The notes beneath the pieces are model-generated. The model did no database searches. It had not been told where the DNA came from and saw only the letters and a program-made list of their open reading frames with translations. Below are positions 1-25,730 of a DNA stretch of 28,363 nucleotides, piece after piece. Position numbers and translations under genes: made by a program. The stretch is taken from contig JAWOEX010000030.1 of assembly GCA_046482545.1 (NCBI GenBank), positions 1-28,363 of the forward strand, given 5' to 3'. Source of the DNA: Candidatus Thorarchaeota archaeon (lineage in GTDB: Archaea > Asgardarchaeota > Thorarchaeia > Thorarchaeales > Thorarchaeaceae). The first letter of the stretch is position 1, and each line of letters starts with the position of its first letter.

Positions 1-188
1 CCGGGTCAGGGCAGGAGACAGAAGCCGAGACCGAAGGAGGGACCGTGTCCTGATGATGGCGGTCAAAGCCCGTGCTTGGCCGGGGGTAGCGCTCCGGTAT
101 GGCGGCGACGCTGGGCAAGGAAAGGGTGGAACACAGGAGTTTCCTCAGTTGGGTTCACTCACTCAACTGTAAGAAACATGTTATCCAG
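1..188 (+). ncRNA. Copy 1 (3' part, cut by window start) of the dispersed ~425-nt structured mobile RNA element
   Basis: Aligns by eye with 17018-17198 and ~25410-25600 (CAGGAG..GAAGCC..GACCG..GGAGG..GATGA..AAGGGTGGAACA..CAGTTG..AACTGT..GAAA..GTTA.C.AG). K-turn hairpin at 29-64; 3' hairpin CAGTTGGGT(146-154)/ACTCAACTG(161-169). Confidence 0.8.
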
Positions 189-10571: not shown

Positions 10572-10943
10572 CTATTCCTTGCGTCTAAAAGCCTCGTCGA
10601 TTTTGCGGTCGAATTCTTCATCATCGTCAGGCTTGAAGATGATGTGAGGCGAAGAACGCTGTCTAATTGGCGTCTGCCAATGCCATACCCCTCCGACAAT
10701 TGTCCCAACTGTAAATGAAGCAATCTGTAAGGGGATTGGTGGCATGCGCATCATGACGTAGCTTCCAAATATGAGCGAGACTATGAAGCCACCAATTAGG
10801 GAGACTAGTCCGCCGAGGGCTATTCGCTCCCATCGGCCAGTATCTTTCAGGGCTCCTATGGCATAGCCACAACCCATTCCTAGAATCATCGATGCTAAGC
10901 TTACTATAGCATCCATGACAGCCATTACCTGCAATTCAAGCAA
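10572..10943 (-). CDS. Small 3-TM hypothetical membrane protein
   Basis: Three hydrophobic helices and an acidic tail; co-oriented with the downstream gene. Confidence 0.65.
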   Translation of the reverse strand: MLELQVMAVMDAIVSLASMILGMGCGYAIGALKDTGRWERIALGGLVSLIGGFIVSLIFGSYVMMRMPPIPLQIASFTVGTIVGGVWHWQTPIRQRSSPHIIFKPDDDEEFDRKIDEAFRRKE

Positions 10944-11142
10944 TCTCCGTCCACGTCTTATCTTGCTATGACCTGTTCCTTACAGCTAAGTAAACTGCCT
11001 AAAACTTCTGTGTTTCGCCCTTTGCCTGTGAGCGTCGTCGCCCTCAAGATACTTCTCAGATCTTGGGCTTTCAAAGACATAATGATATGGTAAGTTCGAT
11101 AAACTTTTCCTTATTCATTCCAAACTAAATAGGGAGCTACAT

Positions 11143-16248: not shown

Positions 16249-17287
16249 TCATTTCATGGAGGTAATCAAACCTTCAAGTTTTTCTCTATCAAAATTCCGC
16301 TTGAAAAGAGGACGATTGTTCGAGTCATATACTCCAGAAGCCTCTGAAAAGCTCGGTTTTGACGTATCTTGATAAAAGACACCAAGAGCTAATTTGCTCA
16401 TGTTGTTTACCTTCTCCTCTTCAACTTCAAAAAGCGCTGATAGAAAACCAACTGCAACTGTATTGGAGTAAATCTTTGCGCTTACTTCATTGGCGATATC
16501 AGTAAATGGGACCTTGAGAATTCGGTCTGTAGGAATCTCCATATCCGGGGTGATGTTCTCTTCTTCACCAACTACGAGTGTGGACTTGTTGAGTCTATCG
16601 TATCTCTTCAGATGGGGAAGTGCACGCTCATTCAGGGAAAATACAATATCTGATTGCTCCGAATACGAGGAAATGTTTCCCTGTCCTACACGAATCTGGG
16701 TTGAATTCTTTCCACCACGAATCTGTGACATAAATTCTCTTGTGGAATACACGTTGTAACCAGAACGTTTCAAGAATAGGCAAGTGGGCTAGTGCTGTGC
16801 ATGACGCCCACGGCCGAAAGCTGTGAGGAAACCTCTTCCTTCTAAGCAGAAGTCCTCACTCTCCGAACAAGGAACTTCATCAGGTTCCGGAGAGTCCGCA
16901 ACTGTTCACCATGTCCGTAATGGACCTCCTCAGTTACGGCGACAATGCTGAGATGGGTGATCATGACCACGCCGTGGTAAGAACTGTGGAAAACCTCGCT
17001 GTCGCCGGGAGTGATGACCCGGGAACACGACAGGAGGAAGCCAGGACCGCAGGAGGAACCCTGTTCCGATGAACGCGGACAAAACCCCTGCTGACTCAAG
17101 GGCCTACGGGTACCGTGGGGGTGGTAACGCTGGCAGGGGAAGGGTGGAACACAGAAGTTTCATACAGTTGCTAAAACTGTAAGAAATAGGTTATCAAGGC
17201 AGATACGAGAAAATCTTCAACAGTTGCTATTCCTTGACCCTCTGCACCAGATAGAACAATGGAGACTCCCTTCTTCAAATTGACCAC
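16249..17287 (-). pseudogene. 2-oxoacid:acceptor oxidoreductase remnant (korA 5' part fused to a korB-like 3' end), interrupted by the 424-bp element
   Basis: VSIVLSGAEGQGIATVEDFLVSAL (ending at 17195) continues after the insert as KRSGYNVYSTREFMSQIRGGKNSTQIRV. The ORF then ends after ~150 aa of KorA with LGVFYQDTSKPSF..PLFKR, resembling KorB C-termini. Confidence 0.8.
16775..17198 (+). mobile_element. Copy 2 (complete, 424 bp) of the structured RNA-like element, inserted in korA
   Basis: Flanked by TCAAG at 16770-16774 and 17194-17198. Deleting 424 bp gives TCT GCC TTG AAA CGT (S-A-L-K-R) in frame on the minus strand. Homologous to copies 1 and 3; no intact ORF. Confidence 0.88.
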
Positions 17288-17551
17288 GTCTATATGAGCA
17301 ATCCAATTCTCTTTCATGCTCCTAAGACTAGTGAAAACATGAGCTTGCAAATGATACCAACTTGTTGTATGCTCATGGTAGAAAATTACGTGTGTTGCCA
17401 TCTATCTCTAGGCCTGCGTTCCGTCCAATTTCTGAGAATAATAATCTAATCTCTTTAGGTTAGTCTGTCATTGACACCGGCATAGACTTCAAGTATGATT
17501 GTTCTGCTTCACGCACATAGTATACCATCACACAATAATGGGGTCATATGC

Positions 17552-24671: not shown

Positions 24672-24959
24672 ATGCCTTCAGCAAATGACACACTAGAACT
24701 TACCGGAGATGACATCATAGCAGTAGGCAGTGCCTTAGGTACTGCCTCCCGCCTCAGGATAATACGGCTCCTCCAAGAAGAAGGGCCAATGATGATAACG
24801 GAGATTGCAAAAAAGCTCAATATGACCGAAGCAAATTCGAGTGCTCAAGTCAAGATACTTGAAGAAGTCGGTATTATTAAAGCGGACTACGAAGCCGGAA
24901 AACATGGTCTAAAGAAGATTTGTTCGGTACAAAAGAACAAGATTATCTTCAAGCTGTAG
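24672..24959 (+). CDS. ArsR family winged-helix transcriptional regulator
   Basis: ALGTASRLRIIRLL..ITEIAKKLNMTEANSSAQVKILEEVGII..GKHGLKKIC. Confidence 0.88.
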   Translation: MPSANDTLELTGDDIIAVGSALGTASRLRIIRLLQEEGPMMITEIAKKLNMTEANSSAQVKILEEVGIIKADYEAGKHGLKKICSVQKNKIIFKL

Positions 24960-25040
24960 AGCCTTAGTTCTCGGTTTCGGATTTGTGAATTGATTCTCCT
25001 GAAAGACAAACGGGATTGTGTAGCAACAGCTCCTCACTAG

Positions 25041-25600
25041 CTCAAGAGTTCGATGAATCTCTCTTTGTGGAGAGTAAGGACTTCTACTTAGAATCACAGG
25101 ACTTCCTCACATCTTTCGGCCGCGTGCTTCGCGCTTCTGTGCTAGCCCAATTGCCTGGTCCTACTGATATCCAGTACGGTTGTCTGTCTACTAAACTCCT
25201 TTTTGGTCACGAAAAGGGCTCGATGAAATCTTACACTCTACTGTGCTGATTTATTTAGGATTCTGTAGGATTTACAAAGATCTTGAGAGTCCGCTGCTGT
25301 TCACCTCGTCTGTAATGGGCCTCCTCAGTGGCGGTGACAATGTTGAGGTGGGTGATCATGACCATGCCGTGGCAAGAACTGTCGAAGACTTCACTGTCAC
25401 CGGAGTAATGTGCCTGAACAACGACAGGAGACAGAAGCCAGGACCGCGGGAGGGACACCGTTCTGATGAACGTGGACAAAGCCCCTGCTAACCCGAGGTC
25501 CTAGAGGTACCGTGGGGGCAGTGACGCTGGCAGCGGAAGGGTGGAACAGAGAAATTTTAGGCAGTTGGGTTCACACAACTGTACGAAACAGGTTAGCAAG
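25041..25600. mobile_element. Copy 3 of the structured element, with its 5' domain inverted
   Basis: 25281-25600 (+) matches 16886-17198. 25048-25156 (-) matches 16778-16885. The inverted block 25048-25280 is bounded by CTCAAGA(25041-47)/TCTTGAG(25281-87). Confidence 0.85.
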
Positions 25601-25730
25601 AGGAGCCTAACGGTTCTACAGCAAGTTGAATCTTGCACAATCCGAAGTGCATGAGGATATTGAAATGCAATGTTTCCCAATGCTTCTTCTCGTTCTTACA
25701 CAAGGAACCGGGTAAGTCAGTGGCGGCATG

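Follow-up and report, generated by a model that had tools for sequence, protein, structure and literature searches.

How the two parts of one repeat copy came to lie on opposite strands, and whether such an arrangement could switch a non-coding RNA, is the question raised by a locus near the end of the analysed window (a DNA stretch of 28,363 nt from an Asgard, Thorarchaeota-like genome designated G000; 3.05 Mb in 45 contigs, 98.9% complete; positions are those of the window, positions elsewhere in the genome are preceded by the contig number). In this copy of the approximately 420-nt repeat (copy 3), the first 108 nt (GGCAAT...CATCGAAC; 25048-25155) are encoded on the minus strand (BLAST match to positions 1-86 of copy 2, minus strand), and the remainder of the repeat follows on the plus strand (25281-25601); copy 2, which is inserted in a POR-family (korA-like) gene, served as colinear reference (16779-17199, plus strand). 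A block of 233 bp is bracketed by the heptamers CTCAAGA (25041-25047) and TCTTGAG (25281-25287), which are exact reverse complements of each other, as the original prediction had described them in position and sequence. The last six bases of the left heptamer, TCAAGA (25042-25047), represent the insertion-site hexamer of the mini-element discussed below, whereas the right heptamer coincides with the junction of the 5' and 3' RNA domains, where it forms the 3' strand of an inner hairpin and the start of the outer helix. The 3' domain proper (25288-25595, plus strand; 80% identity to copy 2, best partial matches 89% and 83%) ends with a CAGTTG...CAACTG hairpin and AAACAGGTTA; it is followed by GCAAGA (25596-25601), the hexamer of the right end, which differs from the left hexamer TCAAGA at one base.

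After the block 25048-25280 had been flipped in a script, the junction aligned gap-free and colinearly to copy 2, and the outer ACUCUC/GAGAGU helix together with the inner hairpin refolded into the topology of copy 2; the predictions that re-inversion rebuilds the full RNA, and that the inner hairpin differs in sequence yet still pairs, were thus borne out. The refolded junction had an energy of −10.5 kcal/mol in copy 3 versus −16.2 kcal/mol in copy 2; the folding energies of the whole element (−137 versus −141 kcal/mol) did not separate the two arrangements. Both fragments of copy 3 end at one and the same element position, a coincidence that independent truncations would produce by chance in about 2% of cases (approximately 10 of 420 positions, as a rough estimate). 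Copy 3 was the sole copy with its 5' and 3' domains on opposite strands when compared with the 44 colinear copies of the genome and about 15 sets of hits in relatives. Inverted-repeat pairs of at least 7 bp are frequent (16 distinct pairs in 800 bp of the re-inverted locus), a 7-bp pair is thus not rare, and the repeat alone proves no mechanism.

The nature of the repeat became apparent from its genomic context. Copy 2 as BLAST query gave 41 matches in the genome (73-89% identity), and separate searches with the 5' and 3' domains brought the total, complete and partial copies together, to about fifty. The TnpB zinc-ribbon family PF07282 gave six hits, each located directly upstream of a repeat copy on the same strand, their reading frames (544-573 aa) extending about 250 nt into the scaffold; Pfam confirmed TnpB for two of the six loci. 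Because of this constant position and of the overlap between the TnpB frame and the repeat, the approximately 420-nt repeat is, on sequence grounds, the predicted 3' omega-RNA scaffold of TnpB. Besides the six TnpB-linked copies, roughly 45 orphan copies without protein were counted, copy 3 included. All copies diverge completely right after the terminal hexamer; a structured and conserved scaffold followed by variable 3' sequence corresponds to what defines a TnpB omega-RNA, the variable part being a putative guide. At copy 3, the locus-specific sequence directly 3' of the scaffold (25602-25621, plus strand) occupies the position of TnpB guide sequences and, by analogy with established TnpB biology, may represent such a guide. 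No Rfam family matched the repeat at either gathering or permissive thresholds.

Several further copies deviated from the full-length form. Contigs 40 and 41 start with an identical partial copy (C40:1-188 and window 1-188), which indicates that the assembly breaks at these repeats. A fragment at 10968-11067 of the window (minus strand) comprises only the last ~100 nt of the scaffold and immediately precedes an ORF of 123 aa (10572-10943) with the same orientation. The copy at C28:124551-125144 (minus strand) is truncated in the boundary hairpin and is followed within ~60 nt by a tRNA-like gene (recognised by eye), and the full copy at C38:28606-29085 terminates with TCAAGA and is directly joined in tandem by a second partial 3' domain. 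At one of the TnpB loci, an AbiEii toxin is encoded by the upstream gene. A candidate full element spanning C20:236748 to 228521 was rejected, as a 1410-aa gene on the other strand lies in between.

The 125 nt that adjoin the 5' domain within the flipped block (25156-25280, minus strand) are not anonymous flanking sequence; they are the element's own conserved left end, since many copies have its first ~55 nt at a distance of 125-180 nt upstream. This left end comprises a conserved ~50-nt motif and an A/T-rich, TATA-like box that probably acts as promoter. The ~50-nt motif is also found at C36:6757 and C42:5006; many orphan left ends carry an 11-bp inverted repeat (AAATCTTACAG / CTGTAAGATTT), and in full TnpB elements the upstream region is a different one that contains TTTAAATA.

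Immediately 5' of the left end, a hexamer of the palindromic pattern TCNNGA was present in 17 of 21 copies (own count), and its two middle bases tracked the left-end subtype: TCCAGA, for example, was seen in three cases with unrelated flanks, and TCAAGA in each of the four copies with the left-end subtype of copy 3. Such subtype-specific middle bases favour a site choice that would be directed by the element. At the other side, every copy ends with ...AACTGTAAGAAACAGGTTA, directly followed by TCNNGA in 29 of 64 ends. When left and right hexamers were paired by reading the alignments, the middle bases were common to both sides in about half of the 18 copies readable at both ends. Empty sites contain one copy of the motif, e.g. 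at ~7796-7816 of contig 26, a site that is empty for an element of G002, one of two sequenced genomes of the same genus (G001 and G002). As the hexamer class is the same at the element end, a 5-6-bp duplication and a target-adjacent motif plus element end look alike. The gene broken by copy 2 (16249-17321, minus strand) matches Pfam POR (PF01558), the name korA being approximate; it is intact in both congeners. The pentamer TCAAG that copy 3 was predicted to share with the korA insertion is real, but it is one instance of the TCNNGA hexamer found at the ends of most copies.

The boundary between the two RNA domains is well defined in the family. In 42 aligned copies, the junction consists of ACUCUCC, a variable hairpin and then GGAGAGUCCGCGGCU; minimum-energy folding closed the outer helix in 37 of 41 copies, and covariation was apparent in the inner hairpin (26 different 5' strands, still pairing). 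Copy 3 alone has U in place of the first G of GGAGAG (TCTTGAG, with T versus G in 41 of 41 other copies), the other copies reading TCTGGAG, TCCGGAG and similar at this position. It is this private base change that makes the internal sequence a perfect 7-bp repeat with the flank; in a search of 86 family genomes, no colinear copy with TCTTGAG was found, the versions there being TCTGGAG only. The aligned hexamer of other copies is often not TCNNGA, so an internal site is not conserved across the family.

The orthologous locus was compared in the related genomes. Copy 3 is flanked by genes for an ArsR-type regulator and a Ras-family GTPase, and the relatives of the latter are from Thorarchaeota or Promethearchaeota metagenome-assembled genomes. 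The alignments of G001 and G002 to the window break off at about 24959-25005 and resume at about 25724; neither genome has the element at this locus, and the outer flanks are syntenic. Of the two, G002 could be aligned on both sides without the block: in the global alignment of its spacer, the missing stretch begins right after 25047 and ends before 25602, which identifies the 554-nt block as an insertion in the lineage of the window genome. G001 is deleted over the site of copy 3 and does not fix the insertion boundary. With the insertion placed right after 25047, the left inverted repeat and the insertion hexamer are one and the same; the empty site of G002 prefers TCAAGA over TCTTGA by one aligned base only.

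The two halves of copy 3 differ in their closest relatives. The flipped block corresponds to a copy on contig 20 (C20:181892-182123) with 99% identity in the left end (C20:181892-182015) and 94% in the 5' domain (C20:182016-182123), and right past the domain boundary the identity drops to about 70%. Both loci share an exact repeat of 117 nt (25151-25267) in opposite orientation, and the flipped block differs from the contig 20 copy at about nine positions (by eye). The contig 20 copy is itself colinear; it belongs to two full copies arranged head to head (C20:181320-182441) that have a single hexamer in common (181886-181891), read as TCAAGA or TCTTGA depending on the strand. The palindromic TCNNGA pattern thus seems to permit insertion in either orientation at one site. 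Two further copies consist of the 3' domain only (C2:33139-33447, minus strand, and C26:67485-67792, plus strand); they start within about 2 nt of the domain boundary, and their left and right hexamers match (TCTGGA/TCTGGA on contig 2, CCTGGA/TCTGGA on contig 26). The domain boundary may consequently serve as an alternative left end. The empty sites of both were sought in G001 and G002, where the flanks had diverged or were rearranged and no clear site was found.

A mosaic descent is nevertheless not peculiar to copy 3. Across 861 pairs of copies, the identities of the 5' and 3' domains correlated at r = 0.14 only, and among the 44 colinear copies of the genome all combinations of the two main 5' clusters with the two main 3' clusters were present, which indicates that domain exchange at the boundary is common in the family; in consequence, the mosaic loses most of its weight as an argument against an inversion. 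An attempt to name the chimera among the window copy and the contig 20 copy by their nearest neighbours was abandoned, as third-party copies all showed 78-85% identity and the domain trees were uncoupled.

A search for enzymes that might carry out an inversion gave little. The whole genome contained no match to the tyrosine (PF00589) or serine (PF00239) recombinase families, and none of the neighbours of copy 3 was a candidate invertase. The absence of PF00589 is odd for an archaeal genome of 98.9% completeness, as an Xer-type enzyme is usual, and might reflect the sensitivity limit of the search. The sole Y1 TnpA (PF01797; C24:6134-6874) is solo and linked to no repeat copy; this IS200-type transposase of 246 aa has a C-terminal extension and is located beside thiolase genes, and no end motifs of the family were detected near it. 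Cas1 (PF01867) had no match anywhere in the genome, whereby a very divergent Cas1 could escape Pfam.

Taken as a whole, the data are probably best explained by a single, fixed inversion in which the insertion hexamer recombined with a sequence inside the RNA that is by chance its inverted copy, i.e. by the one-off inactivation that had been put forward as the alternative to a switch. For the order of events, we infer that a 554-nt non-autonomous mini-transposon (left end, ~420-nt scaffold and terminal hexamer) inserted between the ArsR-type and GTPase genes, immediately 3' of TCAAGA, once the species had diverged from the two congeners that are sequenced. A private base change would have converted the internal TCTGGAG to TCTTGAG and thereby given rise to a perfect 7-bp inverted repeat of CTCAAGA, the hexamer with its flank; one recombination event between the two repeats would then have flipped the 233 bp carrying the left end and the 5' RNA domain. 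The route may have been illegitimate recombination, by short homology or template switching, or else the transposition machinery of the element may have reacted aberrantly at the hexamer. Such a flip would cut the 3' domain off from the likely promoter and 5' domain and split the conserved helix, so that this orphan copy would presumably no longer give the full RNA. An inversion is supported by the agreement of the left hexamer TCAAGA with the right hexamer GCAAGA in their middle bases, as seen in about half of the copies read. The split between ~70% and 94-99% identity speaks against it insofar as at least one further exchange at the boundary is required, the cost of which is low in a family where shuffling is common. 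Under blind short-homology recombination, the pair used would include the insertion hexamer by a roughly 1-in-16 coincidence, which lends modest support to a cut made by the element's own machinery. The proposal that insertion and inversion were driven by the same activity has thus gained in plausibility by the identity of the left repeat with the insertion hexamer, but is not thereby proven. It is tentatively conceivable that TCNNGA is the cleavage and strand-transfer site of the transposition machinery of the family and that the inversion arose as a by-product at an internal inverted site. If so, the same reaction, taking place at the domain boundary, would account as well for the copies reduced to a 3' domain, for the head-to-head arrangement on contig 20 and for the domain shuffling, and copy 3 would be a natural record of the reaction at a palindromic site on both strands.

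The different descent of the halves would be explained directly if no inversion had taken place at all and two elements had inserted head to head, a 3'-domain-only element on the plus strand after TCTTGA and subsequently, on the minus strand after this hexamer in its other reading (TCAAGA), a left end plus 5' module akin to the contig 20 copy. The palindromic nature of TCNNGA and the pair of opposite orientation on one hexamer of contig 20 provide a precedent for this scenario, and the two 3'-domain-only copies (ends at C2:33447 and C26:67485) indeed start at the boundary, within ~2 nt, with matching end hexamers. It is unlikely all the same: no other free-standing module of left end and 5' domain with this precise end was found, the two 5'-only fragments ending elsewhere; the module would have to end in TCTTGA, yet the corresponding base is G in all of the 41 other copies; the end hexamer GCAAGA of the 3' part is mismatched to the left hexamer TCTTGA that would be required; and the empty site of G002 is slightly better matched by TCAAGA. 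Still less probable is an assembly artefact or a strain chimera. A metagenome-type assembly of 45 contigs, in which an exact 117-nt repeat recurs on contig 20 in opposite orientation and contigs 40 and 41 begin with the same repeat, invites such a suspicion, but the 21-mers across the two junctions occur nowhere else in the assembly, an overlap of 7 bp is too short to mislead a k-mer assembler, the ~9 differences to the contig 20 copy argue against a misplaced duplicate, and synteny with G001 and G002 extends over the outer flanks on both sides. No match was obtained when metagenome contigs were scanned by exact pattern for a 32-mer that both orientation states contain. The lowest probability is assigned to the ON/OFF switch of the original prediction, a reversible, programmed inversion by which the non-coding RNA would be turned on and off: perfect inverted repeats around a likely promoter and 5' domain, themselves carrying the recombination-site motif of the family, are what such a device would need, but the repeats measure 7 bp only, the adjacent genes encode an ArsR-type regulator and a Ras-family GTPase, neither tyrosine nor serine recombinases were matched in the genome (98.9% complete), the internal repeat is due to a private base change that is not conserved in other copies, and a single flipped copy, an orphan among about 50, stands against 44 colinear ones in this genome and about 15 sets of hits in relatives.

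The presumed fixed, one-off inversion can be set beside several known systems. The family resembles the TnpB omega-RNA (reRNA) of IS200/IS605-type elements in that the scaffold begins within the 3' end of tnpB and continues beyond it, with locus-specific sequence directly 3', in that insertion appears to take place beside a short fixed motif with one motif copy in the empty site, and in its many protein-less copies, which recall the non-autonomous derivatives of IS200/IS605; it deviates by the palindromic-pattern hexamer at both ends and by the lack of linkage to the only Y1 TnpA of the genome. To our knowledge, the ~420-nt scaffold is longer than the characterised TnpB RNAs. For aCas1-associated TnpB of Asgard archaea, a GTTCACTCA motif has been reported downstream of tnpB (Altae-Tran et al. 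2023, PMC10691335); a subset of the copies analysed here likewise has GTTCACTCA in the 3' hairpin loop, and the host is Asgard in both cases, whereas the present TnpB elements are solo in a genome with no PF01867 match. With bacterial invertons, copy 3 has in common a likely promoter block between inverted repeats, but differs by repeats of 7 bp, the absence of an invertase candidate, its occurrence as a single case and the one state seen. Further parallels are illegitimate or template-switch inversions at short repeats and adjacent inversions made by transposases, in which the breakpoints are likewise in a short perfect inverted repeat; one breakpoint of copy 3 is situated exactly at a transposon end. 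Replicative intramolecular transposition leaves a duplicated element copy, and none accompanies the inversion of copy 3.

Taken by itself, the flip of copy 3 is an ordinary broken repeat copy and does not support the idea that RNAs are switched by inversion in archaea. It is of value as a marker, as one of its breakpoints coincides exactly with the insertion hexamer in an uncharacterised Asgard family of TnpB guide-RNA mini-elements. Together with the pair of copies that share one hexamer and the copies reduced to the 3' domain, this breakpoint points to where the family is cut and joined, a hypothesis on the cut-and-join site that can be tested at the bench.
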